A DNA stretch of 64,000 nt, from NCBI GenBank assembly GCA_051294905.1, contig CM119371.1, positions 36,520,001-36,584,000 of the forward strand. Direction: 5' to 3'. The notes under the pieces were generated by a model. That model was not told the DNA's origin, did no database searches, and saw only the letters and a program-made list of their open reading frames with translations. Source of the DNA: Botryllus schlosseri (taxonomy: Eukaryota). This document shows positions 1-51,175 of this stretch, in pieces. The translations under genes and the position numbers were made by a program. How positions within the stretch are numbered: the stretch's first letter is position 1; each line of letters starts with the position of its first letter.

Positions 1-150
1 TGCGCTGTCTGTGAACTTATCATTTGATAATTTACAGCCTGTAGCCTACTTTATAGGCCTGCCGTTGTCAGCTATCAACCTCTGCTGCTGAACGTTCTTT
101 CTCCATACTTGACAAGCTACTTAGTAAGAACAGACACTTTCTACCCGAGA

Positions 151-426
151 TACTGCAGTGGTATAATCCGGGGCTGCAACACCAATGGGTGTGGGTTCGA
201 TTCCGACCTAGGTCGACTTCATAATTCCGATAGCTAAGTGTTGGAGGTTTACCTAGGCTCCTCCTCGCCACCTCATCCGCGTAAGCGGTGTCTTACAAAA
301 AAGCCTAGAGGTGGGCCGTGCTATATGTTGGCAGTTACGGAAAATAATGAAGAATATCGGCCTGGCGTAAATAACCATAGTAGTTGACAAACACCATGAA
401 TACCACAAAACAAACAAACAAAACAA
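151..426 (+). mobile_element. tRNA-derived SINE, family A
   Basis: A box (cagtggta), B box (ggttcgattcc), (CAAA)n tail, 17-bp direct repeat acactttctacccgaga at 134-150 and 427-443; other copies listed below. Confidence 0.9.
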
Positions 427-2043
427 ACACTTTCTACCCGAGAATGTAGGAAAGTATCTTTCGTTGTACTACAACAAATTTTATTTATTCCATCATAATA
501 CGTAATGTAACTACTGCAATTCTTCATAGGGCCAGATTTCGTTAAAATACTAGTTTTTTCATGTAAAAATTTGTCAGTTTTTGAGCCAAAAACGTTTATT
601 CAGGCCAATCTACTTTGTAAGGACAGACAGTTCCAACCAGAAATGAAGATAAGTAGTACAATTTTAACATTATGTGCGAAAACACCTAATTTGCATGCGT
701 GAGGTCAAAATTTGGTCAAATTTCAGTTTTTTTAGGTCAAAAAAAGTCAAAATATAGATTTTTTAGGTGAAAATCTTCCGTTTTTAGGTCAAAAAAAAAT
801 CGCCCCAGTTATTATATAGGTGTGCGCACTGCGCAGCGTGCGAGAGTGGAGCTTACGCGTAAGTTCGTCGAAGCGAGAAGACTTGCTTGCATTATCGGCA
901 TTTACGATGTACTCTACCCTAATGAATTGAAATCTTGGTAAATTTTGGGTACCGGGCTTATCAATCGCTTTGAAATCTTAATTAAGGATTGCACCGTGAT
1001 AGTGATTTAGTTGATCAGAGAGAAGCAGACATGGCGGCACCTGTATGACAATGCTGTTTTCAAATCCACATTGCATTGTCATTATCGGCGAGAAATGGCT
1101 CTGAAGTGACGTATTGATGTCGATAAAACATATTCATTAAATACGATTTATTCCTTGTATATATGCGCGAATAATGTATCCTTTCAGCAATCCGGCCCGC
1201 CAAGTACTTAATTTCCCTATATCCTGCCCGCTGACTGGAGAAGTTGCGCGCCCCTGCTCCGTAAGAATATCATCGCATCGCATTTCCGGTACATTGGCAC
1301 GAGACACGTGCAAGTTTGAAGTAAATACTCGCCAAATCATCTATAATATAGGCGCACCCATAAAATATCCCAGCTACGGGCGATCAATACTGCAGCGATC
1401 TGAGTGATTATTAGTACAGTATTAGGTTGAGGTTAGCGTGGCGAGAATTTCAAACTATATCTACCCCACTTCCTGATCTATAATCCTAATGGGAGATCGT
1501 TTGAAATGTGACCAATAAGATATCTCGCTATGTAAATACTACAAATGTGCGGACAATATTTCAGAAGAAATGTAATTATCAATCACATTGAGTTATTAGT
1601 ACGTTGCGTCATGATTGCTTGTAAGCTGTCGTCACTCAAGGAATGAGGTAGTTGGAGTGGACCACATTACCAATTATTGCGTCACACGATAGCCTACAAT
1701 TTGCTCGGAGACGTCGTGTCTAGACTCAATAGAATATCGGATCAACATTACTGTTGTCATTATTACATCACAAAATCATGTCATTCCAAGTGCTCCTAAA
1801 ACCGTTGCACAAGCGTGTATTTGTTCCTACACAGCATTCAATAGTTCACGTTCACACATAACAAAAGCGACCGTATTCCGTGAACAGCGATCAACGTACG
1901 CTTCATGAAGCATGCACAGATCACGATAAAATGTATAAAACACCTAAGTATGGAAGTATGGAAATGTCGTTCCATACCATAGATTAAAATCTTCCATTCC
2001 ATACCATACTTGCATTGTTCCATATTCCATACCAAAATATCGA

Positions 2044-2205
2044 TCCATACCATACCATACTTCCATACCATACCATACCATACCATACCATACCATACCA
2101 TACCATACCATACCATACCATACCATACCATACCATACCATACCATACCATACCATACCATACCATACCATACCATACCATACCATACCATACCATACCA
2201 TACCA
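2044..2205. repeat. (CCATA)n pentanucleotide microsatellite, expanded at the end of a CCATA-rich element ending ...catgccctg
   Basis: About 30 near-perfect units; source of the MVWYG/HTIPY ORFs in the track. Confidence 0.97.
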
Positions 2206-3008
2206 TGCCCTGACAGTAGGTAGACGGTATTGTCTGATTTCGAAATATCGGCTCTCTCCTATTCACGCCCACTCACCGTAAACGCTAGTAATTCCACGTG
2301 GTTTATGATCTCTAGCCGAACAACGTTAATTAAGATCATACTTTTAGGGATCATTTCTATAGTATGTGTCTTGATCGTGATTGTTCTAAATTGCGAATCC
2401 GAGCCCCGCGATGAAGAGACAAAACCTCGCGGCCTGAGCAAGAAGCGAGCTCGAACTTAGACTTCGGTCTTCAGTTCGAGATTGATGACTGCGCCTTCTT
2501 TCCGGAGTTGGTTGGCTGCGAGGTCGTCTGAGCGGTTCAGCACTTTACGTTATTCACTCTACTATCCAACGGCATTCGATGTTAAATCAAGGTTAATCTC
2601 AAGCTATTTTCGTCGATTCGCATATACAAGGAGCCTATCAACGTCGATCCTCCCTCTGAATATTATTAGCCAAACATCACATGAATAGATTACCTCTGCT
2701 ACTACCGCTTTACTGGATCATGGCGTATTACATTTGTATGACTGTAAACTATTTCATGACAGCTATGACGGACCCAAGGCGATTTTAAACCATTGTAAGT
2801 GGACCTTTGCTGAAAATAGTTGACTAGCCTTGACATACGGTGTTAGCATAAACTGGATCGCGTGAAGTGGAAAATGGACATATATTTGCTTGATTGGGTT
2901 TTGAATATATGACCTTTGCTAAAACATAGTTTAGTAGCTCTGATATAAAGGATTCTCCAAAGTGCGCGACGGACATATACTAACTTAATCCAGTGTGTCG
3001 GGGCTCAC

Positions 3009-3147
3009 CATAAACTTGTGCAAAATCTCGCTCCTGTCCTCTCTAGTGGCCAGCCTTCCCTTGCGTCGGAATAACTCGTGAACCTCCGGGTACGTGAGGG
3101 TACCGTCTTTGTCTCTGTCTGCTTTTCGGAATATTTCCCAGAGAAAC
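3009..3147 (-). CDS. PLCD: PLC-delta-like gene, exon 4 (EF-hand: FLWEIFRKADRDKDGTLTYPEVHELF...HKFM)
   Basis: Begins after U12 acceptor ...CATAC|; EF loop DRDKDGTLTYPE resembles PLCD 'RKADKNKDNKMSFKE'; ends ATG|GTGAGC, phase 0. Confidence 0.88.
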
Positions 3148-3756
3148 GTATGGTCGCTAGTTAAGAAATGAGCGTCGTTTCGATTCAGGACAATGACTGA
3201 GATAAGCGAAACGATTTCTCACAGTTTGAAGATCTTTTCATGAACCAAGATTTCAGAGTTTCGTCAAAACTTAGACAGCTACGTCTGGCACAAAATATTT
3301 CTTCATGTAGGCTACTTCAAGAATGTACATCAAATTTAAAAAATCATCATCTCGTTTGAACTATTTGTATATTATTTACAGCGGCAAATGTATCTATCAT
3401 GTACAATGTACATTGTACGTACATCCATATTTGCTAATGCTCGACCGCTTGCAATCTACTCCACTTGCACTTTACGTTAGGACTATGCCAGGAAAAGCCT
3501 ATGCATTGCTGGTATTCTTTTGAGGATAAAACGCAATCGAAATTAAGCAAAAAAGGGAGAAGTTCCACTGTCACACATGAATGTAAGTAATTCTCTTCTA
3601 AGCGGTTGGATTTATGGAAACGATATGCAAGCGATGTACCCATTGATTTGGGTAGAATACGACAAATGGATGCGAATGCTGGATACAATCAATTGCAAAG
3701 AACTTATAATATATGTATACGCCACAAGGCGCATTTATTACGCTGTAAAAGGATAT
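3148..3756 (-). other. U12-type (minor spliceosome) AT-AC intron, 609 nt
   Basis: 5' ATATCCTTT at 3756-3748, branch site TTCTTAAC at 3167-3160, terminal AC at 3149-3148; splicing restores the frame (CT+G = Leu). Confidence 0.92.
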
Positions 3757-3961
3757 AGTTGTTGCGTGAGCCGTGGCGGTAACGTGCTCAGTTTCTTCTT
3801 GATGTAGTTCAAGCCCCTGAACCACGACTTGGCCGACTCTTCCGAACCCGCCATGAAATTCAAAGTTTTCCTCTTTCCGCTGAAAACGACTGAGAAACAG
3901 TGCGTCTCTGGTAAATTTCCTTGGGTGACGCGGCGCTCCAGTATTACGTCACGAATGTCGA
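3757..3961 (-). CDS. PLCD: PLC-delta-like gene, exon 3 (C-half of PH domain: DIRDV...PETHCFSVVFSGKRKTLNFMAGSEESAKSWFRGL)
   Basis: Acceptor tttttgcag; matches PLCD '[34 protein letters not shown]'; ends at U12 donor CT|ATATCCTTT. Confidence 0.9.
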
Positions 3962-4357
3962 CTGCAAAAAGAGATGACGTTATCGTCAAATTTCAAAGAT
4001 GATCAGTACAGATGTGCTCCTATGCTTTGTCGGGGTACTCAAATAGGGTTTGCCTACTTGCACGTGGTACACTCAAGTTGTTCGACTATTTTCATGCAAT
4101 TCTTATTGGATAGTTGACTGTTTTCGCTTTGGATTTTGAAACGCAGGAAGTAGTTTTGGGACTATTTTGGTTCATTTTTATGATTGAAATTGTCATAAAT
4201 CGTGAGACAAGGGAGTAATAAGCATCACTGACAACATCAAACCGGATCGCTCTGTCGCATAAAGAATTACGTGAAATGGCCCCAATCACAGATATAACAT
4301 ATTTTCGCCGATTCTCCCTATTGGTAGTCCTGGGCCTACGATGCTTAGTATCGTAAG

Positions 4358-4789
4358 TAGGGTTGCATTTAAAACAAATGGTTGTTCAAAACACTTTGTT
4401 TGAAACATGTTTTAGACAGTGTTTTAAACAGAGGCCTTTAAAAAATCGTGTTATTTTAAGTTGCTAAATTACGCTATAATTGTGTAAATACTTTCCAAAA
4501 AACATGTTGTATGAGCCTACGGACAATTACCGCCCGATATAACCGACGTATACGATATGGGACGGTTGGACCCTCATACTTTAATTTCGCCTCAACAGCT
4601 ACAGTACGTAGATATTTCGTCAAATGAGCTATATTTACCATATATTTTCAATTGTCAATGTCGATCCACTATCACGTCACAATTGAATATTTGTCATGAC
4701 TTTAAAAGACAATAAAAACATGTTTTAAACAAGGGTCTAGTTTTAAGCATGTTTGTTTGAAATGGATTTTTGCTTTAAATGCAACCCTA
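4358..4789. mobile_element. MITE with TAGGGTTGCATTTAAA termini in PLCD-like intron 2
   Basis: About 21-bp TIR with one mismatch; TSD degenerate. Confidence 0.75.
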
Positions 4790-4822
4790 CCCGTAGTCCC
4801 ATTATTCATGTTGGATAAGTCG

Positions 4823-5085
4823 CGAGAGAGAGAGAGAGGTATGATATTCTTTCTCGCCTGCACCATCGAGATGCTTTGGCGACGGAGTTGCGATACGGCC
4901 CCATGAGGTCATCTAGTCTGCGCCCCCGTTTTTTTTCTCCTCCATGCTATCCGTGATTGCTGAGCGCCTAGCAGGATAGCTGCGGATACCATTTTTCGAG
5001 TCTTTGGTATGACCCGGCCGGGGATCGAACCCACGACCTACCGCTCGAGAAGCCGGACGCATAACCATTACACTATCTCGCTCGG
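4823..5085 (-). mobile_element. tRNA-derived SINE with Meta-like central domain and (CT)n tail
   Basis: Head with A and B boxes (GGTTCGATCC), then GGGTCATACCAAAGACT..AAAAATGGTA...CTGCTAGGCGCTCAGCA; no TSD seen. Confidence 0.8.
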
Positions 5086-5380
5086 ATACATCAGGCAAGT
5101 TCGACAGTAGCTACATCCGTTTGACTGCTACAAGTATACGACCCTTCGACCTAATGTGTTTTTTGAAACTACTCCCTTGAGCCCTTTTTACTTTTCATTT
5201 TCCATTTACGCCTCTAGTGGTTGGTTAATGAGTAGAATGTTTCGCAGTTGCTTCTACTCCCAGTTGAGGTTCACTGCATTGATCAACTCTGTGACGTTAG
5301 GCGGAAAAGTATACCTCATGAGGACGAAATCAATGAGCTTGCTTTCTCGCGCTAGGCAGAAACAGCAGAAAATTACCCAC

Positions 5381-5560
5381 ACGATCCGGTCACTGATGAG
5401 GTATTCATATTCGGAAGCCAGCAGCGGCTACGCCTGTACGAAACCCGAATGAAATCGTCCTCCAGCCAGCAAAATGCGTTCACAGTTCTGGTGACCCAGC
5501 GCGCGTGACGAACCATCAGGAGCCCTTCGCCGTCTCGCATTAAGCCGAAGGTGTCATCGG
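5381..5560 (-). CDS. PLCD: PLC-delta-like gene, exon 2 (N-half of PH domain: ADDTFGLMRDGEGLLMVRHARWVTRTVNAFCWLEDDFIRVSYRRSRCW...)
   Basis: Acceptor ttcatttcag, donor T|GTGGGT; 180 nt, phase 1-1; aligns by eye with PLCD1 'LLKGSQLLKVKSSSW...LQEDCKTIW'. Confidence 0.8.
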
Positions 5561-5845
5561 CTGAAATGAAAGTAACACGTCACCTACTTTCACCAGAAAC
5601 AAAATGCGGTAAAAGGCGAACAGCTGTAGATTATTACAAATCTTCCATAACCATGGGATGTTGTGAGTAACGAAGTACACTTCAATTTTGCGACACTCAC
5701 GTAGGTTTTTCGTGTTGACGCTGCTTTCTCACGTGGCTATAGTTTTATACTACTTCTGGTTGAACGTTTTCAAGGAAAAAAATTATTACTTTTTACCTTT
5801 TGAAAAGCAGAAAGTACTTTGAGGCGGAGTTGGACACAGCTGCTC

Positions 5846-6232
5846 CAAATTAGACTAGAATCAGAATTATAGCTACACATTTTTTTTTTTGAATTATACT
5901 AGAATTGGAATTTTAGATACACATATTTTTTTTCAAATTAGATTAGAATTAGAATTACAGCTACATAATTTTTTTTCAAGAATAAACTTGAATAAGAATT
6001 ATACCTACACATTTTTTGTTAAAATTAGATTAGCATAGAATTATGGATACCTATTGTTTTCAAAATGAGACTAGAATAAGAAATATAGATACACAGTACT
6101 TTTTTAATTAGAATACGAATTGAGCTAGATTAGAATGGAATTATAGATACACATTTTTTTTAATTAGACTAGAATTAGAATTATAGCTACACGGTTTTTT
6201 TTCAAATTAGATTAGAATTAGAATTGAATTCG
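5846..6232. repeat. Minisatellite, about 9 copies of a ~42-bp unit AAATTAGATTAGAATTAGAATTATAGCTACACAT(T)n
   Basis: Visible tandem array inside a MITE copy. Confidence 0.85.
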
Positions 6233-6277
6233 CAATAACTCGGAAATTGAATCAAGCTCGGTTCACATCAAATCAGA

Positions 6278-6614
6278 GGGAAGCGAGTGGCGTAGTTGGT
6301 TAAGCGCCAGCGTCACCACAGCAAGGGCAGTGGTTCGAATCCCGGTTCGGACTAACTTCTACGTGTCGGAGGTTATATGGGATCCTCATCGCCGAAATCT
6401 TGAAAAGCCCAGTCACAGTGAGCCGAGCTATAAGTCGGCAGCAAAAAGAGACGATGAAGAAGCGAGCGTGACAGAGAGTGCCTGGGGGAGTGCAAGAGCG
6501 TTCAAGAGCCGAAGAAATGCATTCATTGTACTGTATAACTTGTAATGCCGTGGGACACAAAGCCTTAAACAGGCTATAAGCACCACTGATGTGAATCATA
6601 ATAATAATGATAAT
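6278..6614 (+). mobile_element. tRNA-derived SINE, family B
   Basis: A box tggcgtagttgg, B box ggttcgaatcc, (ATA)n tail, 11-bp TSD atcaaatcaga at 6267-6277 and 6615-6625; inserted in a MITE. Confidence 0.9.
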
Positions 6615-7459
6615 ATCAAATCAGAATGCATTCAAGTAAGCATAAGAATTGCAAATGTCTGTGCAGCCAGCTTGGGTCTTTTCGCACTATACGCTATACA
6701 ATTCTCCTGTTACATATTCATGAAAACTAAATATTAGATTGGAATTAGAGTTATAGGACAGAAACATTTCGCAACTTAGATTACCGGCAATAACTAGATT
6801 TATCCAATAGTCCGAGTCTACTTTGAGGACAAGTTTGCATCACGTTTGTGACTGAAATTGCCTTCAAAACCGCGTGAAATATCCACTGTATCACGGTATC
6901 AATGTATAAATAGTCGACGATTTCAATTATTTGTGGTGGCATTAATCATTTTGGGTAAACCGCGCAAATTCATCGTGCAATTTCCAATACAGTCATCCGT
7001 AGGGTCACAATAATTTGGGAACCGTGAAGGACGACACTTTTCACAGGCTGCAAAAGTTACCATAGCGGACGACAAAACGGATAATTTTGAAATTTATACA
7101 GCTAATTTCACTGGGTTGACTAAAAAAGGTCATCTTTTCGACTTGACTCGCGAAATACCCGTCGTCCGTGGGTTCGGCCCAACTTTTCCCAGAATTCATG
7201 GTCTTTTCATAGAGTTTAGGCTAAAAAGAAGGACATTTGGGCGAAGGGAGGATATTTCTTGAAAAGGAGGACAAATCCTTCTAAATGAGGACGTATGGTA
7301 ACCCTATATTAAGTATCCCAGGCCCAGTTTTGCGCAAAAGGCTGAACACTGCTAAGTAGAACTGGACCATTCAAGTAAATATAGTACAAGCGTGGGCAAA
7401 ACCTATTTGATAATGAGAAAAAGTAGAAGTACTTCGTTACTGACCACCGCAGGCCTTAC

Positions 7460-8060
7460 CTTCAGCTCTGTCGGAAAGCTCAATCTCCTTCAGAATCGAT
7501 TTAGGCAGAGCTGGTGGGCGTGTCCGTTTCGGTTGACTAAACACGCTGAATTTCAGCAAGGTCCTGGGGTTCGACCATGCGTGACGAACCGGTTCCGGAT
7601 CTTTCGCGACAATCTGCGGATCACATCCGGTTCCGTCTGTTACGTCTTCCGAGTTACCTCCACCGTGTAAGGTTATGATCGGAAAACCACCCGGGACGGG
7701 GCTTGTGACGTTATAGAGAACCTCATTGGAGCCCAGCTGTTTTGCGTGTCTGCTGAAAGAGGTTTCGGAAATTTCCGGAGCGTTTCGGACGTCTTTGGAT
7801 CGTTTCGCATGTTCGGAGAGTATTCTCCAACTGAAGTCTGCGATCAGTTTTTTATGTCCGTTTACGTCATCATTTGTGGCGTCACTGAGGTGCTTATCGT
7901 CCGCGTAATAGGAAGAGTCGGTGTTTGTGCCCTCAGCGTTTTTGATGTTGTTAGGCCTTCGATGTGAAGCCGATTCGCTGATTCGATTCGAGGTTAAGGA
8001 TTCGGGATTCGGAATTCTTCCACGCGAATCTTGGTTCGGGTATGATTCTTTGCTTTCCAT
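7460..8060 (-). CDS. PLCD: PLC-delta-like gene, first coding exon (low-complexity/disordered N-terminal extension, about 200 aa)
   Basis: 207-aa ORF from ATG 8060; donor GAAG|GTAAG at 7460/7459 (phase 1) joins in frame to the PH exon at 5560. Confidence 0.7.
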
Positions 8061-8204
8061 TACGTCATAGCGGCTGTTACTGTATGCGTTTTGCTACGAA
8101 TTCTAGACTGTTATAGATTCGTTGTGCTTATAGGTGTCATCCGTAGATACATAATATAGCGTTGTGCTGTCACTCCAATAAAAATGTACATGATATACAT
8201 ATAT

Positions 8205-8476
8205 ACACACACACACACACACAATCTGTGCATATGCATACCATATGTGCATGATGTAAATATGCCGCTGGACAAGGAGGGTGCCGAAGTAGCCTTGTAG
8301 GGCTTTCTAAGTCTTGCACCACCATCCATGCAATGCCGAATAGGCTGAGCACAAAGCGGGAAAGTCTTGGATACCAGTTTAACTGGTCAGGTCTTTGGTC
8401 GGACCCGGCCGATGAAGGAACCCACGGCCTACCGATCAAGAAGCCGCGCGCTCCACCATTACTCTATCTTGTCGGT
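8205..8476 (-). mobile_element. SINE with the same head and Meta-like domain as 4823-5085 but a different 3' tail, ending in (TG)n
   Basis: GAT AG.GTAATGGT...CGGTAGG.CGTGGGTTC...CGGCCGGGTC..ACCAAAGAC...TGGTATCC...GCTCAGC shared; downstream sequence unrelated. Confidence 0.75.
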
Positions 8477-8559
8477 AACTAACAACTACCGATAGGCTCG
8501 GGCACTCGTCGAGTATGAGACAAACAATTGTTTCGAGTTCTAAAATTATATTTCCCTTG

Positions 8560-8900
8560 ACACCCACAGCTACACTTTCAGATTTGTTGAATATTCAGGA
8601 CCTATCATTTGGAATGCATTACCACAATTCATCCGTGAATTGCCGTATGATAGATTTCAAAAAGACCTATTCGATCATCTCTTATCGTCATATCAACACT
8701 GCTGGCCTACCTCGCCCGGTCACTGCTTGTATAATTTGCTACTATCAGTTTTTTTCTACTTTATTTTTAACTAACATTCGTGACGGCGAGACCATGTATC
8801 TGTACACTGTACGTACAAGTACAGGCAGTGTACTTGTTTGAAGAGGACGTGATCAGACTATAGTTGACCTCCAAGGTCGTATCTATCATTTCTAACCAAT
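8560..8900 (+). mobile_element. 3' fragment of a CR1/L2-like LINE (ORF2 C-terminus remnant)
   Basis: Translates as ...YSGPIIWNALPQFIRELPYDRFQKDLFDHLL, a typical post-RT C-terminus; second copy at ~16430-16540 (TRSSSKGNIYL...GPIIWNALP). Confidence 0.65.
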
Positions 8901-14879: not shown

Positions 14880-15539
14880 CAGACTTGGACAACTAGAGTC
14901 AAGTAGACAAATTTCAGAGAAATGAGGGTAACTCAATTCTAATCTAATTTGCGAATTGTTTCTTTTCCCTAATCCTAATTCTAATCTAATTTGTGAAATG
15001 TTTCTATGTGCTCTAATTTAATTCTAATCAAATTTCTGGCATTCCTGGAAATGCTACAGAACTGTATACCATATATTTTAGGGTAGTGTAGAATGATATG
15101 TCCTCTTTTTTTTGCAAATCGTCCTCCTTTACTGCTTTTACAGTTAGGAAAATGGACAGGACAGGTTCAACTGTAAATCGGCATCAATGACGTTCGAGCG
15201 GGTCATTCGGGCGTCAATGAAAGTGATTACCTTTTTTTACATTTACATTTTCGATCAACCAACTTTTGTGGTTTGGTAACAGTGTTCTTCTTTCCCGATT
15301 CCAAGATATGGTAACCCCAGTATAGTGCGAAACCAGCCAAGCTTGCTGTGCATTCATTTGTTACTCTCGTGCGGACGAGAGTGAACCATGATGTGATATG
15401 GACTGAATTTCATTCAATGTCCAAGTTATGGCGAATTAAGAAATTCAAATTCTAAATTAATTTGTAAAGAAATGTGTAGTTATAATTCTAGTTCTAATCT
15501 AATTTGGAAAGACCGTAAATTTTCTAGTTGTCCAAGTCG
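14880..15539. mobile_element. Representative of the most abundant MITE family (GACTTGGACAACTAGA termini, AATTAGATTAGAATTAG internal repeats)
   Basis: Related copies at about 5824-6820, 18870-19015, 26797-27072, 30107-30502, 40887-41060, 43600-43882, 46521-46869, 47604-47705, 50012-50490 and 63925-63985. Confidence 0.8.
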
Positions 15540-31241: not shown

Positions 31242-32276
31242 CAGGCCTGTTTATTTTTGGATATTGGGTTTTATTTTTGGAGATTCTCTAAAAATAAGAT
31301 TTGAAAACATCCAAAAATAAGATTTTTTTGGATGATGTTTTTTCAAGTTTTTCAGTGAAATAAACAAGTAAGAGCGATGCAAACAACCAGGAAACTCATC
31401 AAAACAGCATGTGTGTGAGGGAGGGGTCACCGAAACGCTAAAACTACTTCCACTCATTCCACTCCACGTTTCTGCTGACGTTGCCTTCCCGCCCCCTCAG
31501 TCTTTGCACTCCTGTAAGTTTCACAGTGCGACACGTAGAGAAGACGGGCAGGCAGCCTGCGTGAGGCAAAGGGAACGGCGAAATCAAATACCACCGCCTC
31601 TGTCACAATCAGTTCGTCTACACGATGACGGGACCTATTGGCTGCCTCAGACGGCAACACAACTTGATCCAGGAGATGGAAAGTACGTGTCCCAAGTTTG
31701 TTGACGCCCGTTGGTTGTCAATGAAGGTGGCCTCTTGGTTGACTGGACACCGTACCAAACTCCTTGGTGTATGGACGAGAAAAGTCCGGCCTGTACACCT
31801 TCGCTGCAGTAGTGGATCCAACTGATCGCATGGTCACAGAGTTGAGCACCACCGTCAGGAAGCTCCAGGGTCTTGGCGTTCTGATCGTGGCGCAGGAGCT
31901 CCAGCGCCTGGTCGAACGCCGTCGAGCTCTGTGTCCAGGCGAGGACTGGGACAACGACGCCCGCCACAAGGAAGGTTATCTGGTCAAAGGGTGTTGGGCT
32001 GTCAAGTTCAATGAGGCACGTATCTTCGTGGGGGATCTGAGGTTTCAAGCTCATTACTGTATTACTACGAGCGCTTGTCAGGAGCAAATGCACAGAAGTT
32101 TGAGGAGGTTGGAGAGTTTGCCACCCATCCGTTTTTGGACCTCTGGGCTCGACGTTTCCCACAATTGCGACGGTCGAGGCCGATATCTCGAAAGGGATAA
32201 GGGTCTCGGCCGGGTGTCTCTCCAAAACTAAGCTATTTTTGTTATTTTTGGAGAAATCCAAAAATAAACAGGCCTG
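31242..32276 (+). mobile_element. Internally deleted hAT DNA transposon with frameshifted transposase remnants
   Basis: Perfect 21-bp TIR caggcctgtttatttttggat, perfect 8-bp TSD gtgatagc (31234-31241 and 32277-32284); remnants LRRQHNLIQEMESTCPKFVDARWLSM, DEKSPACTPSLQ*WIQL and KLQGL lie in three frames. Confidence 0.9.
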
Positions 32277-32558
32277 GTGATAGCTGATAGACTAACGGTA
32301 TGTTGTGGATAATTTCATCGTGTGGACGTTGGTGGTTCGAGCGCCACTGTCGTAATCCATACTTACGTAGTTAATAGCTCACCTTCGACTTTATAGTAAC
32401 ACACGGCTATACCAGTCAGATAGCGTAGTGGTCGTTGGACAATGGACATACGATCACGCGACACAACAGCACGCGTCACTTCAGCATGTGGGTTAACTTT
32501 CGGGTTTGGAGATAGTATTAGGGTTTTGTCGTCAGATTCTTAACTGGCGTATGCTCAT

Positions 32559-38500: not shown

Positions 38501-40542
38501 GAGTTCGCGTGAACTGGCGCCGCGAAGAATTTACCCGGAAGAGGTCTTCTGCGGCGATAGAGAATCCACTGTGTACGTTAAGAGTGTAATTTCAGACGGC
38601 GCATCGTTGATCGCTAAACGGCCTGTCGGGTTTTGTGTTACTTGCGGATTAGCGCCACGAAAATATCCGTGCCCGCGTTTTTGATTGATGCCGCCATGTC
38701 CGCTCGTTGACTTGAAAGCGGAGGCGTGTAGCAAAGAATGGCAGTGACACAGTCGCGAACTCGAGCAGGGTTGACCGTGCTTGCACGATTTTGATTTTAA
38801 GATCCGCATGTTCTTCAGAGGTAACGCCATAAGGCATGACTGAAGCACGGGTCAGTGCTGTTTTTACGAATTAATCCGTAACTTGATTCAAAATCCCATC
38901 TCATTGTGGAGCTAGTTTGCATTCGCGCGTTAGTACGGTCGTGGATATCGTTCTATAAAGCGAAATTAAAAGTAAGTCGTAGACCAATGTACTGTGTAAT
39001 GGCCGCATAGGATGCACAGTTGCACACGCATATAGTCTAAAGACACTAGTGTGTGCAGTTGGGCACTGTGCAGTGTTCAAGACGGTTATTTTGTGCCTCT
39101 GCTACCGTGGTTCTTAACTAGGGTTGATCGGGCCATTCCAGGGGATGCTGTATGCTGGAGGTCATGAAACACACTCAACTCACAGCAGAAGTCTTACCCG
39201 GAATTTAATATCGATATAAAATAGGCCACATAGTTTAGCAGTCGCGTTTTAAAACTTCACGTCACGTCACGAGCCGCGTGTTTGTAATCTCTGGTTTAGA
39301 ACCACTCACATCAGATTCAGTGCGCTCTGAAACAATCAAAATCTACCCAAATCGAAATGAAAGACTACGTCTCCTTGAGAAACGTTAGTGACTATACATG
39401 GTTAGTGTATCGACATGTGAAACGGCGTAATTAGAATTATTCGTCAGTTGTTATGTAACGAGATAATTTGAATTCCTTGCCGTGTCGCGATTGCTCTACG
39501 AAATGTAGGGATGAGGTACTAGGTAATGATCAACCGCAATTAACGGGGTCGTTGGGGTCGAATTGTGACGCAAAGTACTTTTGCAAATCGCCGTCCGAAC
39601 CACTGCGTTTCATTGTCGCTTAAAACGAAACCGGTAATTTAACATTTCTCAGATCAGATTATGACGCAGCATAGTCTGCGTTAGAGACGGTCGTAATGAT
39701 ACATTGCTACCGTGACACGCGAATTGCGATACTTCTTTAATTACCGCTTGGCGTGCCGCGAATACGGCAGCGTATACTGCTACGTATATAGTTCGCGGGC
39801 CCTCGCTGCAGTGAGAAGAAATCCGCTGATCGAAAACGAGAGAGAGATAGAGGGAAGAAATGCAAAGGAGAAAACGCTCCTTATCTATCCAGGGAGTGGA
39901 TAAAGCAGGGCAGGTGTTGACTCTTTTAGCATTCAACGGCTAAGTTCGTGCAGGTGGACAAATCCAGAGGTGGTTAAAGACGCCGTTTATACTCAAATAG
40001 AAGTAGAAGGAACGCCACAAATTTCCACTGGAAGTAGAGATTTTTCAAATATGTCAAAATTATACTTCGAGAGGAAGTGAAAAATGAAAGGTCTGCAATG
40101 TGCTTAAGTGAATAGTTTTATAGAAGACTTACGACGCTATGAATAAGCGCAATTTTCGAATATATCCATAGTTGACCATCATACAGGGCTATTCCGCACC
40201 GTTTTTACGACGATTTCACTCATAAAAGTAATAAGAATTTGTCTCAAAACTAATTTCTACTCTTTCAAAATCCAAATTGTACAAAGCGAGTGGTTTCGCG
40301 CAAAACACTGTCCAAGTTGAAGCGGCACTAGAATACGTATGGTATGGACAGGCAAAACCTGATTTGAATATCTTAAATTGGTACTGACCACATCTTCGTG
40401 AAACCGATTTATCACATTTTCCTTAATCGCCACGTTTGAATCATGGCGTACACCGTCGCTTAGTCCTCACGAAATTTAATAACACCTCCTCCTACGTTAT
40501 ATGTAGATCTCTAGACGTATTATAGCGTAACAATCACTTGCG

Positions 40543-40780
40543 ATGCCGGGAAAAACACACGATATGGAGGACGACTTCGAGGCCACGCTACCGCCGAGGC
40601 TGAGACCTGTCCTGGACGACATTGCCGAATTCGAGAAGAACTGGGCCGAGAACCGACAGATCACAGAGTGGAACGGGCACACGTTCACGCCGAACTTTTT
40701 CGCCGACACCGCGAAGTTCGCTTACGAAAATTGGTCGCCGCGGAAAGGAGATGTTTTCATCATGTCCTTCCCGAAAACTG
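40543..40780 (+). CDS. SULT: Cytosolic sulfotransferase exon 1 (MPGKTHD...DVFIMSFPKT-G; 5'-PSB loop)
   Basis: ATG 40543; SFPKTG motif; donor G|GTGAGA; 238 nt, phase 1. Confidence 0.92.
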
Positions 40781-42443
40781 GTGAGATATTCGACTTTCAG
40801 TTATTTTGTTATTCGAAACTTATTTCTGCTTCTCCTGAAAATGCTACAGTCAAGTCCAGTCAAGCACTTTTGCAATTCTTATACTTATGAGAATGAGCTC
40901 GAGAACTTGATTTATCATTTTTATTGTTTCTTTCTGATTCCGGATTTCATTCAATATTCAAGTTTTTTGCGAATTCGGTAATTCTCATCCTAATCTAATT
41001 GAAAAAACTCTCTAATACTAATCGTATTCGGAAAAGCTTAACTTTTTCTAGTCGTCCAACTGAGCTCGCTGGTTTTGAGACAGTGAAGCAACCGTGGTCG
41101 TACAGAATGGTGGCAGACGCACCAAGTAACGTGTTGTAGATGCAGAGTTCCTCCGAATTCACGACCACATGGGCCGTAATCACGAATAAACAAAATGGCG
41201 AACGATGAATTTCCTGTCGACCGCAAGCAGAATGCTTATGCAGCGCGTTCCTGCCGTTTGAAATTCGTTGATTCGACGCGTAGTAATTGTCGTGGTATTC
41301 CTAAGTCTCGTAAAACTCGGCTGAAACTTTTTTGATCGAAATAATTTTCAATGTCCAGCGTCGGGAATCTTTCCCTGTGTGAAGGGATCTTGTGTCATGA
41401 AAATCGGTTTTGGAATATGTTTTGAGCTTTTTTTGCTGATTTTTAAAACAGTTACGGAATACGGCTTCAAACATTTTCTCTATACTATGTTATGAAAAAA
41501 TGCATTCATGACAGAATTCTGTTAGTTAGGATACTATCTGGTGATCTGAGGATCTATCTCTTCAAGGGAAACCCGTTCTGGAAGAGTGTGATGTGACAAT
41601 GTAAGCGTGAGAATATTCCTAGGAAATTATGTGCGAGTGTAAACAATCCCTAGGAAGTTATGTGCGAGTGTAGACAGAGTAGATGCAAACTACTAAAAAT
41701 ATACTGCATGCATTACTCTTTATTTTGTCTCACTCGTCGTCTTTGCACAAATGCACAGTTACCAGCTCGGTATTCCCTTGTCCTTCAAAATTGCATCTTA
41801 TTCCGCCGAAATGGTTTTCTATTGGATCTTTGCACATATTTAAATACAACTAATTGTGATGTTTTCGAGTTGAAAAAGTTTGTAATCGGTGATATATTTT
41901 TGAAAACACAATATATACCAATTTTGCGCCACTAGCTAAAAAGCTATATACACCGTACGTGACGAAGTGTTGTGTGCGTATCGTTGGACAGCTTTTTCTC
42001 TGATTTTTATGACTTTCCTGAAGTGTCAATCCCCACCCCAATTCTATACAGGCCGTATAAGCTGGAGTAATCAACCTTACTTCATGCCTAGTTGCTACTA
42101 CCTCAATTGATGCACCTATACATTCACATGAATGTAAATAAAGACATAATCAACCATGCAATGTTTCCATTACCAGCGCAGCTGTAAACAACGCTCGGCA
42201 TCGGCATCGATTGCTCGGCTCAGTTGACAAAATCATCGCGACCATAACAATCGGTGCCTAGTCTGACTACACACAGCCAGATGTTTCGTTTCAATAATTC
42301 AAATTCCAGCCATTCTTTATCTGAATCCTAAAGATTGCGGACGACGGTTTTAATTGCTCATTGTGTCGTCACTGACAGTGATTGATAACATTGTATTACT
42401 CTTTACCGCCATCGTCCGTTTAATCTCCTCGTGATTTGTACAG

Positions 42444-42557
42444 GTACGCATTGGATCACGGAGATCGTAAAGCAAATCATATACAGGAAGGACCCTGTCA
42501 GTCTGCGGTACGGGAGAAAATGGCACGCGGAGTTGGCCATCATCGAGTTCGGGCCAG
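42444..42557 (+). CDS. SULT: Sulfotransferase exon 2 (GTHWITEIVKQII...IIEFGP)
   Basis: tacag| acceptor, G|GTACGC donor; completes PKTGTHW; 114 nt, phase 1-1. Confidence 0.92.
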
Positions 42558-45500
42558 GTACGCCATTTTGATTAACGTGAGCGCCAAAGCGCTGGTAAAA
42601 TACGTGCTGTACTGCTTGGGATTCGGGAGCTTTTTATTTTATTTTAGTTGGTACGCGCTTGTTGTAAAGTCTGTGAACTGTAAAAAGTAATATAGTAAGC
42701 TCCTCTTGGTCCGAAATGAGCGAAATAATATCGTCATTTTGAAATTAAGTTGTAACAACATAAATACCAATAGCACTTCAAAACGTTGGTGTCTAAAATG
42801 AGCGTATGCTGTGCATCCTTTATTGTATTGTATACGCCTGTATGCGACATCGTTTCAGGTTTTATGTGCTATTTGCGAGAGTGATAGATTGGAACAAGGG
42901 CATTTTCGCTTGAAAACTTTTCACTGAATGTGAAAATACAGACTATTCTCATTGATTCAAATGATCTGATTCGATATTCGAAAGACCGTATTCGTTTTGA
43001 AACGCCTGATTCCAATCGATTGGAAGTTGCTCACATTTCTGGAATTAATTACCGTATATGAAATCATGATCAACCCACAGCATTATTGGCTCAAGTGCAA
43101 TTGAATAAGCATGGTAAAAAAATTCTGAATTATTTGGTGTAGAACTGGCATTATGTTAGTTTGTTTGTGGTCGCATACTTGATCTTTTCAAATAATCCAC
43201 AATCTTGCCACGTCTCAATGGGTGATACTTTAATTCACTCCACTCGAATCGAAGGCTACTACAGGTGGTCGATATTGTCCTGGCCTGCGTGTGATCGAAG
43301 TCCACTTACAACCCGCTACGGCCAGTCATAATTATAATCCAGCCGAAAACAAGCGCAGGAAGGTTGTTTACTGCGATTTGAATGTCGACGGATTGCCAGC
43401 CTGTGACACAGCGCTAGGTTGATTCGAGGGCGGTGACGCACCGCAATCGACTGCGTCCACAGACGCTGCGTACGCGGGTGAACCATGGAGATGATTTAAT
43501 AACCAAAACATATCCGGGACTTTCCGGGCTATCTGTTGACGCGCTGAAAGCTTTACTACCTTGGAATTCGACCAGGGATTCCTTCCGAAGCGTCGGAGGC
43601 AGACTTGGACAACTAGATGATTCTACTTGTGTAATTAAACTAATATAGTGCGAAACGAGTCAAGCTTGGTGTATAGTTTGGCATTCGCGTGCTTTTGAGA
43701 ATGAACCACTAGATGAACTGAACTTTTGTTTTGTCTCTTTCCAATGTGAAATGTAATTCAATTGCTAAGGTTTTGCAAATTCAATAGCTCTGATTCTAAT
43801 CTAATTGAAAAAAACTGCAACTATAATCCTAACTCTAAATGTAATTTGGAAAAGTTGAAATTTTCCGAGTTGTCTGATTCTGCCTCCTTGGCATCCGGCC
43901 CGCGTAACCCGGGTCTTATAAAGCCTAGCATGAAATCCGGTAGTGCTGTAAGTCGTCAGCCAAGGAATAGCAGTAAAGAATATCGGTCTGGTGTGAAATG
44001 ACCATTGATCTGTGCAATCGAAAGCCGACACAACATGAATACTAGAAATAACGACTCAGATCCGAATGACCGGGACTGACCTTTTCGGCAACGAGCTTGC
44101 CTCTGTTATGCAATGGTGTTTAGACGACTATGCTTATTACGCAAGGATATTACCGCACTGTTCAGCAAAATACCACCCCATTAAGACATGACGTAACGGA
44201 AACATTTACGCGACCAACGTAGGAAATGTCACAATGTCAGACACAAAAATATGACTGGGCCTTGTGCGATACAACCCAATTTTCGCGATACGACTATGCT
44301 TTGAAGTGACTCTGACAATATCACGGATTAAAAGATGCGAATTTATCAACGCCAATTTTCTGATTTACTGCAACAGGTACTGGCCGTGAAATGCCGATTC
44401 CAGTCCGTTATCAGACTATGTAAACAAGCCCAGGTAGACGGCATTCCATCCCTGAACTTGCATTGACAGATAGCCTCGATTTGTTCGTCTCCGTATTTAC
44501 CTGTGTTGTGTACGTTGATGCGTGGCGCAGGCCAATTCAAAATGTCCGTCGGTGACTTTCTGTGGCTTCAGAATCACTAGGTGGTCCCCGTACGGGCGGG
44601 AAAACGAATCGTATTTGAACTTGTCGTTTCGTCTGGTATTTCGTAAATATTTTACGTTATTCTGCCTATAATATAAAAAAATCACAATAAATTGTATGGA
44701 ACGAATTGTATATTATAATCTGACTGGTTTTCGCCCCGTTCGCCTTCAAAATACTGTTTCATGTTTCCACTCACTTCTAAACTGTTCTTTAAACCCAATT
44801 TTATTCATTTTACAAGTTATATTATTTGTAGCATACCAATTTATGGAATTAATTATTTGGATCATCCTAAAATCCTGATAATGACCGTTACAGTAAAAGC
44901 CATGGAGTGCCGTTCCCAAGTCACGTACCGATTTCTCGAAATCGAAGTATCGCGTTGACGAGACAATGGCAGGCACAATTTAATTGTGACCAAACAATGA
45001 CTTACCCAGAAGATTTTCAAGGGCCTCATTAATATCTGTCAAGTTTGGTTCGGATAACAATCGTGTTCTATACACCTTGATTTCTTCGATAATATACACC
45101 CGTTTGTAGCCTACACCAGGGAACCACGACATATAAAAGACGCTTGATTGAATTTCCTAGATTGGTGTTCCACTACGCGACATGTGTACTAGGGACGTAA
45201 AAACTCTAAATCTGTTGCGGAAATGACCAGATTGTCCTAACGGCAAAAAGAATGGCGATTCGACCTCGGTTGAACTCTTCAGTCGGGTTTGTACTTTAAC
45301 ACCGCACAGGCACAACCCCGCACAGGCACAACACTTGCGACGTCATATCAAGTGATGCTCCACTCGACCCAAAGCCGAGTGCTTGTTTCATAATCGCTTT
45401 TGGCGAACCCTACTCGTTTGGATCACGGCAAGGTCCAAATGCTGAGCTTTTTAGAAGTCATTCGGGCACATTTGATGCGAATCAACGAAATTGTGGTCAA

Positions 45501-48500
45501 TTTCCATTCACAAACGCTATGCTCCAGCTGTATTTCAGCATTTGGTTGCTCGCTAGTAGCCTTTCCTATGTAGAATTGAAGTTAAGGTCAGTTGAGTTCG
45601 CCATTGCTTATCAAGTCGCGCTCACGCGCCCGACGACGGATACGCAGTTAGTATAAATGACGTCACAACGGGATAAAGTCCACCGTTATCCGAGACCACC
45701 TTACGGAGTTCGTTGACTGATAACAGTGATAACAAATAGCAGATGCTTTTCTGTATGTGGCTATTTACGTCATCGACAATGAAGCAGAAAAGAACTCTAG
45801 ACTTCGATATGAAATACGGATGTGGTTAGAACACACGCAATGCATATATACTTTTTAATCTGTTGAAACAAGCAAAAAAAAAGGATGGTATACGAGGATT
45901 ATATACATATGCAGACGCACAGGGGCACCGAGACGCAGTTACGCCTGGAAAGCGAAAGACATGGGAAGAATCTGACACGGTACGTGGGTTAGGCGAGGCT
46001 GAAGAATGAGGGTTGAAATACAATCTCGCTTTGCCTCGACTCTATTCGTTTCGGATATCATTTTCGGCAGAATCTGAGTTGAACTCGGTTGAGACGAAAT
46101 TTCATCATCTCGGGCCAAAGACTCTGCGCACCGCCGACAAGTTCATCACGGCAGCTGACAACTGATTAATGGATGTAAATAGATTAGGCTCGTTTGTTAA
46201 TGTTTACCGCAGTGTCGAGTGTCTGCAAGATGTTGGATCGGTTTGGTGCAATTCAGTTCAGTTCAGTTCGCTTTATTAATAACTCCATCGTTGCGAAACA
46301 CTGCGATATTTCGATAAAATGAAAAGATAGGAAGGAGTCGAAACGATTGCAGTAGTCTTTCATTCAATCACGCACCAACTTTGACCTAGAGTCCTAGAGC
46401 ATGCAAATGAAAGGCATATACTACCGTGCACTGCATCACGAGTAACAGGTGATAACATGAAAAGGGCATGCGAAGAAAATGAAGTGTTTCATCAGGCAAT
46501 TGTGGCATATCGCTATTAGTTTTGAGGACAACTAGAAAATCTTCAGATTTTCCGAATTAGATTAAAATTATAGCTACAGTTTTTTTCTCCAAAATGGGAT
46601 TGAAATTAGACTTACTGAATTCGCAACAACTTGAAAATCTAATAACATTCCGAAACAAACCAACATACTTCAAATTCAATTCGTATCAATTCAGATTTCA
46701 GTGTCATATAAGCAAAAGAATGGCAAATGTATATACGCCGAGCTTGGCTTGGTTCGCACTATACAGCTCTTCAGCATTTCAGGAAAACCAGATATTAGAT
46801 GAGAACATAGAAACTTTCCACCAAAACTAGTAACCTATATTTACACAAGTAGAAGACTGTCCATGTCTGACGTGTGGCCTTCAGAGTGAATTCGAGTCGC
46901 CCGAACATTGGGCTGCTAACTCGGGCGCTTACGTGGCGCATAGGAGTGAATAAAACAAAATCTTTGTCCTATAGAAATATGTTTCGTAATCAATTGAAAC
47001 AAACTCTATCTGTTTCCTCAGACGAACTCGCGCTACATTGTTCTTGGCCTAGTACAGCGCGCAGCGGATAAGGCGTTAAGCGCCAGATTGCATTGTGACC
47101 TGATGAAATCACATCCGAAACATCATTAATTAACGGCGCGCGTATCGGTAATCCTACGGCCTGCCGCGAACCCGCCTGACCTCAACTCTGCTCCGAATGT
47201 TTCTTGGAGATTATCACGAGGAGTTATTATGAGGTCACAAATCAACATGTGCATTGTGACGTGTCGAAAAGCTGTTTAGATCACAATGCCTCGTAGGCGA
47301 AGCCGTCTGCTGAACGCAGTTGAACCGGCTGCGCGCACTCGGTTGACCCCTGCCATCTCCGACAGACTCTCTTAATGACTGGTATCCAGTAATAATAACA
47401 GAGCTTTCACATTTTGATTAAAAATAGAGAGAAAAAATTATGCACAAACAGCCACTTAGCGCCCGCGCTTTAAATAATCAGTGGCATTTCACGGACGATT
47501 CTCTCGTGGCTGTATAAGGGTAGCGCGCAAGGAAGTAATATGTAAATGACTGCGTACGTAAACAGAGTTATCCGATGTCAGCGTTGTCCGGGCTGTATGA
47601 AGCAGACTTCAACAATTAGATAATTCTAGTTGTCGTTTAGAGTAGCGAAATGCTGGTAATCTAATTTGTGGGGTGTTTCTCTGCTATAATTCTAATTATA
47701 TTTATGTTATGTTTCTACGCAAGGTCTGCTGTCTTAGAGACGCGATTCTTGACCTTACATCGCCGAACGAGGCGAATAATATATTTCGGAACCGTTGCAA
47801 TACCCATTCTCTCTCACATATTCGGAACTTAAGTCTAATAGATTGTCGACTGGTGATAACGGTCCGGTATTCACTGGCTGATCAGCGTGACGAACTTGTT
47901 AATCAATCATTCATTAGAAGCGAGTGTTTCAAGCGACCATACAATCGTTGACATTTTTTCACTACCCCGGTAGAGCGCACGCTTTTTCTGTTCACGTCAA
48001 GCGACATTCCTTGCATATTTTCACTCATTGCAGTCAGCTCGCGTTTTTCGAATACGTGCGAGACCAGCGTGGTCGCCAAGGGCGGCGAACGATGCAAATA
48101 TCCCGTTCAAGGTTTCGATTTGAAAGTCGTGATATAGTTATTGCCCACTACGTCAAAACGAAGATTCCTGACGTCACGCCGTAATTACTGGGGCTGGATA
48201 CTATGATTTGAGTCGAGAATTCCGAGTCAGTTTTTTTTTAGTACTAAATTTTTAACTGTTTTTTGAAAATTCCAAATTATTACTCATCAAAGAATCTAAA
48301 TGCAGCATACGGCCAAACGTGTTCAACTGTTCAGCTGTTCACGAAAACGGCATTTCATTGGAGCAGTGATAAACCCGCGGCGTTTTCCCAATTCGTTATG
48401 CCATATTTATGGAAGATACATTAACGAAATTATTCCTGACTGACAATATCTTGTTTGTGGTCGAACGGAAGATACGTAATTCAGCTTGTCTAATGTATAA

Positions 48501-48693
48501 CGCCATAATACGTATTACTCGTAAACTAGAACTCAGCTTGAGAGTCGACTAGTAACAGAATCACCCATGTATTCGATTTTGCCCAGCCATAATTATCACG
48601 AACATTACGCCCTTTGAATTTTCAACATGGCCTGCGGTCCAGGCCGCGAGACTGGAGACTGTTATGTTTCATCTTGTGGTTGCCCTCTTTCAG

Positions 48694-48803
48694 CGTCCAA
48701 GTTCAAAGTAATCGACCGCCTGCCGGTGCCGCACCGCATATTTTCCTGCCATTTGCCCGCGCATCTCATGAACTTGGAGAAGATCAGAAAATGCGGAGCC
48801 AAG
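48694..48803 (+). CDS. SULT: Sulfotransferase exon 3 (ASKFKVIDRLPVPHRIFSCHLPAHLMN...GAK; catalytic His)
   Basis: ctttcag| acceptor, AAG|GTGGGT donor; RIFSCHLP corresponds to RLLKTHLP; 110 nt, phase 1-0. Confidence 0.9.
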
Positions 48804-49848
48804 GTGGGTGTCGCGCTTAACGGTTTCCAGTTCTGTTTTGAAACTGACTGAAATCTCATTTATTCACGGTCTCTCCCAATGATCTACAGTTTAATGCGAA
48901 AGGTCGCAGAGCTTACCTGAGTTCATTCGAAATTTTCGACTGTTGTTTCCGAGTATATCTGTGTCATTATAAAATATTATCAGTTTTGTTGTGGCCTCCA
49001 TAGTGACAACGGCATCACACAAGTATTGCTAGACACCTTACGATTGACGAACTGCGCAATGACTCGAATTCGAAATGTTACTACAGATGTGGTCACAGTA
49101 GCCCGCGGTAGCGGTGATGACGAAAACCTTCACTCAATTACAAGTAGAAATGGCTATTCACAAGATATGTTCACTATACGCTAACTCGCCTCATAATATA
49201 GTTATAGTTGACGGGCAAGTAACTGCTGCATTTTGAGTAGTTCACGTTCTAGTTCTAGTTGCGTACTGTGAAAACTGAAGTAGTTCTAGTTCTAGTACTA
49301 ATTGTGTATTTTGAAAAGCGATTAGTTCTAGTTCTAGTTACCTTCGTTCTGTTGTGTGATGATCGTCCAGCCATTAGTAGCCTACAGTCATCGCTACTAA
49401 CAGTGGCGTAGTCAGGGGGTGGGTTTTGGGTGTCGAAATCCCGCCCATTTCAAACTCGAAACCCCATCCTTCTGACATGCTCACATCTAATATTCCTTAG
49501 CACACTTGCGATTCCGTAATTCGTATCAGCCTTTCCAGCTGGTTGTGGTTTAGGTAATTGGTCGCGGATTTTTAAAGTTCGGCGGTTGTATCTCTAGTTT
49601 TTGTTTGTTCCAAGTGTGAAAGCACCTGCTGAATGATGAATATGTTTTTTCTGCCGCGTCAGGCATAAAAATTCATTACTTTTTCGTCACCACGCATACC
49701 TATTCCCGCTCCGGCCTCGCTTGACCCCCGAGGTCAAGATATCAGACACAACACGCTGTCGCGTCACGAGACAACGCAGACGACGCGTATAACGTTACGT
49801 AACTGCGTAACGTATCAGCCGCAAACGCGATTGTTAACCTCTGCGCAG

Positions 49849-49990
49849 ATAATCTACATCTACCGCAACCCGAAGGACCAGACCGTGTCGTGGTACCACT
49901 TCTCGCGGCGCATTCCCCACGCGCAGTCGCAGGAATTCAAGGACCTGTACTCGGACGATTGGGACAAATTCATCGACAACTATTTCAGCG
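49849..49990 (+). CDS. SULT: Sulfotransferase exon 4 (IIYIYRNPKDQTVSWYHF...; 3'-PB motif)
   Basis: gcgcag| acceptor, G|GTGAGT donor; RNPKD..VS motif; 142 nt. Confidence 0.95.
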
Positions 49991-50700
49991 GTGAGTTGCA
50001 GACATTGACATAATTCTAGTTGTCTGAATACGCTAATAGAAGAGAAATGCCGGTGACATAATTATATAGTCTAATTTGTGCAATGTTTTTATGCGCTCAT
50101 TTAAACTGTAATCTAATTTCTGGTCTTCCCGAAAAAGCCACAGTAGAACTGCATAGAGCGAAACGTGCCAAGCTTGCTGCGCAGACATTTGCTATTCTCG
50201 TGCCTATTAGAATGAAGTCTGGCTTGATATGAACCGGGCCTGATTTTTGTTGCCTTCATTTTGCGAATTCAATAATGGTCATTCCAAATCTAAATCAAAT
50301 TTGAGAAAAAGTAAGTAGCGATTATTCTAATCCAAAAAAGCTGAAAATTTTTTAGTTGTGTATGTGTGAATGATTTGAAATAAAGAATTTACCTCAATTT
50401 CCGAGTTTCTGCGAATTCAGTAGTTCAAATTCCAGTCTAACTTTGAAAAACTGTAGTTATAATTCGAAATCGAATCTAATTTGGAGCTGCTACCTCATTC
50501 GTAAACGCAAATTCGATTTGAAGTTCGGAAAACTAGATTCGACACGAAATACCCGGTTCGATTGGTACAGTTTCATAAATGATTCGGATCCGCGATACGT
50601 GTTATCCATCCTTGTTCTTTTGCGATGTTGGAATTGTGAATTGATGGCATCGTTCTTGGCTACGCTCAACGCCCGCGTCACGCCCACCTTGTAACCGCAG

Positions 50701-50816
50701 GGAAAATGCCAACTGAACAGCTCGACGGCGAGTGGTACCCCGATCACATGCTGAGCTGGTACCAGCACAAAAACGACGAGAATGTGAAGTTCGTTTGCTA
50801 CGAAGACCTCGCAAAG
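50701..50816 (+). CDS. SULT: Sulfotransferase exon 5 (GKMP...WYPDHMLSWYQHKNDENVKFVCYEDLAK)
   Basis: ccgcag| acceptor, AAG|GTAAGA donor; YEDL motif; 116 nt. Confidence 0.95.
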
Positions 50817-51018
50817 GTAAGAAGTAGTGAAACCAAATCCAAATCCTGGAATCGCAGCAGTTCCAAGTCCATGGCCAAACGGATCAAACTCGCCGAAAAG
50901 GCTCATAAAAATTGGAATTGAACTGGAATTCCATGTCTAAGTCCGAATACTATTAAAAACAGTATGAAAAAGTATTGAATTTCGCTTTTTTTTATCACGT
51001 CGTGTCTGTCTGTCGCAG

Positions 51019-51175
51019 GACATGTCCACGGAAATTCGCGACGTGGCCAAGTTCCTGGACATCGAGCTGACGGACGACGAGGTGGCTACTGTACAGCAGA
51101 AATGCACCTTCGATCACATGCGACAGTCCTCGTCCGGCACCCCGCTGCAAGACGTGTTCAAGCTGTTCAGAAAAG
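51019..51175 (+). CDS. SULT: Sulfotransferase exon 6 (DMSTEIRDVAKFLD...CTFDHM...LFRK-G)
   Basis: tcgcag| acceptor, G|GTGAGT donor; 157 nt. Confidence 0.95.

Follow-up and report, generated by a model that had tools for sequence, protein, structure and literature searches.

This locus raises the question of whether a phospholipase C (PLC) gene on the minus strand of the 64-kb window (the whole stretch of DNA that was analysed) is interrupted by an intron of the minor, U12-dependent class, and whether that intron is removed at the sites which its sequence suggests. A sequence-only reading had pointed to a U12-type donor, a branch site 12 nt before the intron end and an AC acceptor, and all of these were found at 3756-3148, as an AT-AC intron of 609 nt in phase 2 of a PLC-delta-type gene. 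The 5' end of the intron at 3756 reads ATATCCTTTT, in agreement with the pattern RTATCCTT, and inspection of the minor-class 5' splice site ATATCCTTT (3748-3756) shows C at +5. The branch-site motif TTTCTTAAC is located at 3160-3168, its last base standing 12 nt before the intron end, and has one mismatch to the U12 consensus. Within this site, TTCTTAAC begins 20 nt and stops 12 nt before the intron end, with two A residues at −15 and −14, and its distance fits that used for U12 branch sites (about 10-20 nt upstream of the 3' end). The 3' splice site TAC (3148-3150) is a YAC-type terminus, and the stretch from branch site to acceptor lacks a pyrimidine tract (pyrimidines at 6 of 12 positions). 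The donor begins exactly at the end of the PH homology and the AC terminus falls exactly at the start of the EF-hand homology. The cut splits a Leu codon between its second and third bases, and the joined frame runs open from PH to EF hand (QQL|FLW), as had been proposed, while reading through the donor leads in translation to a stop six codons downstream.

Such motifs are not rare by themselves. Dinucleotide shuffles of the window (200 in all) contain 4.5 RTATCCTT sites on average, compared with four in the window itself, and 38% of them had an AT donor with a branch motif and YAC downstream at a distance of up to 3 kb; the chance of the donor is about 5e-5 per site. Motif rarity was therefore dropped as an argument for a U12 intron. 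What stands above chance is the placement at the PH/EF homology borders together with the joint found in contigs, so the case for a real intron rests on position and splicing and not on motifs alone. The remaining three RTATCCTT sites (1176 on the plus strand, 44150 and 59521 on the minus strand) were treated as chance occurrences, since no branch motif comes close behind them: within 3 kb there is none for two of the sites, and for the third one lies at 2.6 kb.

Four exons of the host gene were delineated on the minus strand. Exon A (7460-8063) is the first coding exon found, with candidate ATG start codons near 8066 or 8060; it is an open frame for a long N-terminal extension of low conservation, which has blocks in common with a Styela clava protein annotated as PLC-delta-1-like (XP_039252876.2, here P0006), and it is joined to exon B in contigs of run X1. 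The GT-AG intron between them (5561-7459, 1899 nt) is thus defined by a contig joint. Exon B (5381-5560) encodes the divergent N-terminal half of the PH domain; it was located by tblastn of P0006 (52% identity, E 1e-12), and a Pfam search with this exon alone gave no match. The following GT-AG intron (3962-5380, 1419 nt) is rich in repeats and its joint is predicted, only nine contig letters preceding exon C. Exon C (3757-3961), present in X1, encodes the C-terminal half of the PH domain (Pfam PH, E 3e-5; best PDB match the PLC-delta1 PH structure 1mai, E 7e-6) and a linker, and ends two bases into the Leu codon. Exon D (3009-3147), found in contigs of X1 and X11, encodes the first EF hand (Pfam EF-hand_1, E 3e-7) and is followed by a GT donor. 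Positions 1-3008 form the start of the next intron, in which tblastn with five full-length relatives detected no exon; the exons for the catalytic X and Y regions and for C2 would lie beyond the window edge. Together the four exons yield a single open frame of 376 codons, and apart from the AT-AC pair the splice sites of the gene are three GT donors and two AG acceptors.

P0006 is the closest full-length relative (E 3e-61). Its alignment takes in the blocks of the N-terminal extension and passes the exon C/D junction without a gap, with 34% identity over the aligned N-terminal part, low enough to point to a different species. It contains EF, X, Y and C2 domains, and among PDB structures it matches delta1 best (451 bits), followed by zeta (429), gamma (344), beta (330) and epsilon (282); the X box retains its catalytic His motifs in P0006 and its group, in exons of the relatives that correspond to sequence beyond the window. 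The nearest relatives of P0006 are proteins of Ciona (P0059, P0062), Phallusia (P0060) and Clavelina (P0061). A tree was built from 23 selected full-length proteins; it was rooted at the midpoint only and included neither an eta or zeta row nor the window sequence. In it six proteins form a tunicate group (group A, support 100/100), which is separate from another pair of tunicate proteins and from the echinoderm and vertebrate delta enzymes. The placement of the window gene in group A rests on the common N-terminal blocks and on identity, which over 174 PH-EF residues amounts to 83 with Styela and 63 with Ciona group A, against 37-54 for proteins that fall outside this group. These comparisons support the assignment of the host as an ascidian PLC-delta-type gene, probably of a tunicate-only paralogue group, and place the source organism among the ascidians, probably close to Styela; the PLC-delta-like identity originally suggested is borne out by the PH and EF domain matches and by P0006 as nearest relative. 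It was also observed that tunicates have two distinct PLC-delta-type paralogue groups (P0006 and P0059-P0063 versus P0067 and P0104), and that the public names within group A vary between delta-1, delta-4 and zeta-1-like.

To see how the intron is processed, four sequencing runs mapped onto positions 2600-8600 were used, two of them assembled contigs (X1, of a kind guessed as 'RNA?', and X11, whose kind is unrecorded, '?') and two raw reads (X19 and X23). A joint between 3147 and 3757, skipping 609 nt, was found in contigs of two of the four runs, X1 and X11, with zero positional ambiguity; its ends read GT..AT on the plus strand, which is AT..AC on the strand of the gene. In the X1 contig (record 1, 1217 nt, depth 8.7), exon C occupies letters 10-214 and exon D letters 215-355, giving 141 letters on the shorter side of the joint with one mismatched letter and no gaps, and the contig extends 862 nt beyond exon D. 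A second X1 contig (record 4) shows exon A spliced to exon B. The identical 3147-3757 joint is carried by an X11 contig of 240 nt (record 7, depth 7.7) with 30 letters on its shorter side. Beside this spliced form, X11 holds an unspliced contig that spans the minor donor (3297-3786) and another that spans the donor of exon A. X11 thus includes unspliced RNA or some DNA, and the 3297-3786 contig could represent retention of the intron. Depth is zero in the interior of the AT-AC intron in X1 (3203-3604) and in the unique intron bins 2801-3001 and 5615-5815 in X11; these gaps fit transcriptomes, though the filter can also leave holes. In the raw RNA runs X19 and X23, of which about 6% and 13% were read, depth was zero on exons C and D. 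The exact split predicted from the letters was therefore recovered in both sets of contigs, the two raw-read runs having no coverage of the gene, and the GT-AG junctions that would have spoken against it are absent from the joints listed.

Could nearby GT-AG sites nevertheless share in the splicing, the AT-AC form being one isoform among others? When 15 donors were combined with 14 acceptors, 17 GT-AG pairs kept the frame open, the best of them (donor 3741, acceptor 3157) adding eight residues, and the annotated Ciona savignyi model carries an insertion of a similar kind. Among the joints listed, however, the AT-AC joint is the sole one at the exon C/D junction, although contigs drop rare variants, so that minor GT-AG use could go unseen in X1 and X11. 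The AG at 3157 stands only 3 nt past the branch motif, presumably too close for use, and the junction is free of any insertion in the annotated orthologues of Styela, Ciona intestinalis, Phallusia and Clavelina. Partial GT-AG splicing is thus very improbable here. The same pairs bear on the earlier proposal that gene finders confined to GT-AG would miss or break this gene: they could mis-model it, as the insertion in the C. savignyi model (P0062) illustrates, but with 17 open GT-AG pairs they need not break it. A different objection is that the joined contigs derive from a processed, intron-less DNA copy, given that no record identifies X1 or X11 as RNA and that X11 contains joined and unjoined forms together. 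Exons A and B are joined in X1 too, and the empty intron interior of X1 and the empty intron bins of X11, the latter unlike a genomic run, speak against it, as far as holes left by the filter allow; moreover, a processed copy would itself record splicing at 3147/3757. We consider this origin of the joint hardly credible.

The remaining possibility concerns the machinery. An AT-AC intron of this gene might now be processed by the major, U2-type spliceosome, as in sodium-channel genes; U2-type AT-AC introns do exist (PMC2831892), and a Rfam search of the 64-kb window detected none of U11, U12, U4atac and U6atac, U3 being the sole match. However, U2-type AT-AC introns are described as having G at +5 (PMC2831892), and because the window intron has C at this position the U2-type reading is unlikely, indeed very much so when the full U12 donor and branch site and the missing pyrimidine tract are considered as well. 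In addition, ascidians are reported to retain the minor snRNAs, all four having been described in Didemnum (PMC5006418), and the minor-spliceosome loss reported within tunicates concerns larvaceans (PMC13326754). The sequence-only reading had taken the intron to imply that the organism retains these RNAs; such retention would be unsurprising and indeed expected in this lineage, because ascidians are reported to keep them.

Taken together, it is very likely that the interval 3148-3756 is an AT-AC intron of an ascidian PLC-delta-type gene, excised exactly in transcript-like contigs, situated at the codon of the vertebrate PLC-delta minor intron and removed by the U12-dependent spliceosome. The signals, the exact joint, the host family and the common position are the directly supported parts of this explanation, and the U12-type class first assigned from the letters is now backed by spliced contigs and orthology in addition to the signals. 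The steps by which U11, U12, U4atac/U6atac and U5 recognize AT-AC introns are established minor-spliceosome biology. In the present gene, U11 would pair with the donor ATATCCTT and U12 with TTCTTAAC at the branch site, bulging an A about 14-15 nt from the intron end; U4atac/U6atac and U5 would then complete catalysis, and the spacing from the branch, with no pyrimidine tract involved, would set the choice of the AC acceptor. Removal of the intron would link the PH domain to the EF hand, while retention would lead to a stop six codons on and probably to decay of the message.

The position of the intron was then followed among homologues. A U12 donor in phase 2 translates as X-Tyr-Pro, and gene callers that run through it leave this mark, which cannot separate AT from GT donors. 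The PH Trp served as anchor in 46 of 47 matches to exon C, and Tyr-Pro was found 23 residues after this Trp, exactly at the junction, in 27 of the 47 and at no other offset within 1-40; these 27 take in two close relatives (P0002 and P0004) and a named teleost fragment (P0013). Of the other anchored matches, four run on into the EF hand and 15 do neither, 14 of them being more than 400 residues long. Among 120 full-length proteins, Trp follows the junction residue in 108 and Phe, Ser or Thr in five, which belong to tunicate group A; three models show Tyr-Pro read-through (C. savignyi P0062, tilapia P0124 and P0139) and four are otherwise irregular. In P0062 the insertion comprises six residues and starts with Tyr-Pro. 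The public models P0062, P0124 and P0139 thus appear mis-spliced at a minor intron, P0087, P0091 and P0116 being irregular as well. Read-through of this kind makes the intron an annotation trap, and the Tyr-Pro signature offers a cheap way to map it in species without DNA at hand. At the DNA level, a scan for loci was made with a closer alignment (A3), A1 having been too diverse, and gave one locus from 56 candidates, contig L001. It reads CA|ATATCCT at the same codon, is 81% identical to a fish-like delta3 fragment, and ends before the acceptor. In both the window and L001 the junction comes 22 residues after the PH Trp, in phase 2. Same codon and same phase support orthology of the intron with the vertebrate PLC-delta PH/EF minor intron.

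A vertebrate minor intron at QH|WI had been suggested earlier, and read-through peptides, the contig L001 and catalogued donors now agree with it. In the catalogue of PMC6717393, human and mouse PLCD1, PLCD3, PLCD4, PLCH1, PLCH2, PLCZ1 and PLCB1-4 are entered as genes with a minor intron, and each delta, eta and zeta gene has a single such intron in the list; the donors are of AT type in PLCD3, PLCH1, PLCH2 and PLCZ1 and of GT type in PLCD1, PLCD4 and PLCB1-4, the table comprising donors and branch sites without acceptor ends. According to PMC6865273, 60% of phospholipase C genes have a minor intron. The last exon bases listed fit the junction codons, GCA of PLCD1 agreeing with Gln-His before Trp in rat delta1, and CCA or TCA of PLCD3 and PLCD4 with Asp-His and Asp-Gln in fish delta3 and delta4. 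For PLCZ1, the variant c.11+4T>C (PMC10919416) implies a phase-2 boundary in codon 4, the T at +4 is also present in the donor listed, and extrapolation puts the junction residue at 3-4 in the solved zeta chains. The proposed comparison with PLCD1, PLCD3 and PLCD4 is therefore supportive for the codon and not for the subtype throughout, as the donors of PLCD1 and PLCD4 are GT and not AT. It was also noted that the listed PLCD4 donor is degenerate (score 61-63 versus 92-100 for others) beside a strong branch site, which may reflect a conversion in progress. It is likely that the intron predates the tunicate-vertebrate split. AT would be the more parsimonious ancestral donor, later switched to GT in PLCD1 and PLCD4, because AT donors occur in the ascidian gene, the fish-like delta3 contig, PLCD3, PLCH1/2 and PLCZ1, though this reading draws on few DNA-level donors; switching from AT-AC to GT-AG is a described route (PMC2831892).

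A functional reading of the host was also considered. Three basic residues of the PLC-delta1 PH domain, K30, K32 and R40, bind PIP2 and are needed for membrane binding (PMC2132833). In alignment A2, Met, Arg and Ala occupy these columns in the window sequence, the pairwise match of exon B to vertebrate delta1 being not significant; the first PH strands (5381-5560, minus strand) thus seem to lack two of the three, a lead from a weak alignment. The host PH domain might accordingly have lost its PIP2-binding residues and be functionally zeta-like, slow removal of the AT-AC intron might serve as an on/off switch, given that a retained intron would stop the protein ahead of its catalytic core, and the gene might in that case be a candidate for the sperm factor behind the calcium waves of ascidian eggs. 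The tunicate-only clade (100/100) and the joined and unjoined forms in X11 can be cited for this proposal; at ascidian fertilisation it is PLC-gamma that is reported to act (PMC7574550), and the proposal is highly doubtful.

Other features were recognized in the same window. A full-length U3 snoRNA gene (2332-2536, plus strand; Rfam RF00012, 124.8 bits) lies antisense in the intron after exon D. Exons of sulfotransferase genes extend over about 40531-51932 on the plus strand (Pfam Sulfotransfer_1 at 49669-50010, E 8e-9), with further exons recognized by eye near 40.5 kb and 50.7-51.9 kb. A word-index search with a sulfotransferase exon (four candidates) found nothing, nor did one with exon C (seven candidates). 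Repeats at 2045-2206, 5846-6225 and 14935-15035 comprise a microsatellite with a 5-bp unit in about 33 copies and a dispersed AT-rich minisatellite of 43-44 bp. Short interspersed repeats at about 4980-5085, 6278-6395 and 8230-8460 look tRNA-like by eye, each of the two raw RNA runs has hundreds of reads on them, and ARAGORN called no tRNA for them. At 31647-32291, overlapping open frames of 214 aa (minus strand) and 162 aa (plus strand) have no Pfam match.

The minor spliceosome in ascidians is already published, and the intron described here, though genuine, is an unremarkable example of a class already known. U12DB lists 113 U12-type introns for Ciona intestinalis, and U12 introns persist in Ciona for 25 of 77 comparable human clusters (PMC2831892); AT-AC termini account for 23% of the U12-type introns of C. 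intestinalis (PMC7367187). Our literature search found no paper on this ascidian PLC intron, though online intron databases or preprint supplements may list it; the PMC2831892 supplement holds no PLC entry, and one supplement of PMC10639083 no ascidian row. Knowledge of how the minor spliceosome is distributed is unchanged by this intron. Its significance is modest, namely that a catalogued vertebrate minor intron is now extended to tunicates, where many minor introns have been lost or converted, and that AT is favoured as the older donor at the PH/EF position.

Compared with known systems, the intron belongs to the same class as the U12-type introns of Ciona intestinalis, which are found in the same subphylum. 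Styela P0006 and the other members of group A have the same junction, where Leu precedes the first EF helix, a likeness at the protein level, the C. savignyi donor being deduced from read-through. Among vertebrate genes, the PLCH1 donor of human and mouse is identical to that of the window over nine intron bases (PMC6717393, supplement 1). PLCD3 shares codon and phase with it, by way of the DNA contig L001, and PLCZ1 shares phase 2, its position being extrapolated. The introns of PLCD3, PLCH1, PLCH2 and PLCZ1 nevertheless belong to a different lineage and have an unrelated intron body, and those of PLCD1 and PLCD4 fit in their junction codons, yet are of the GT subtype.
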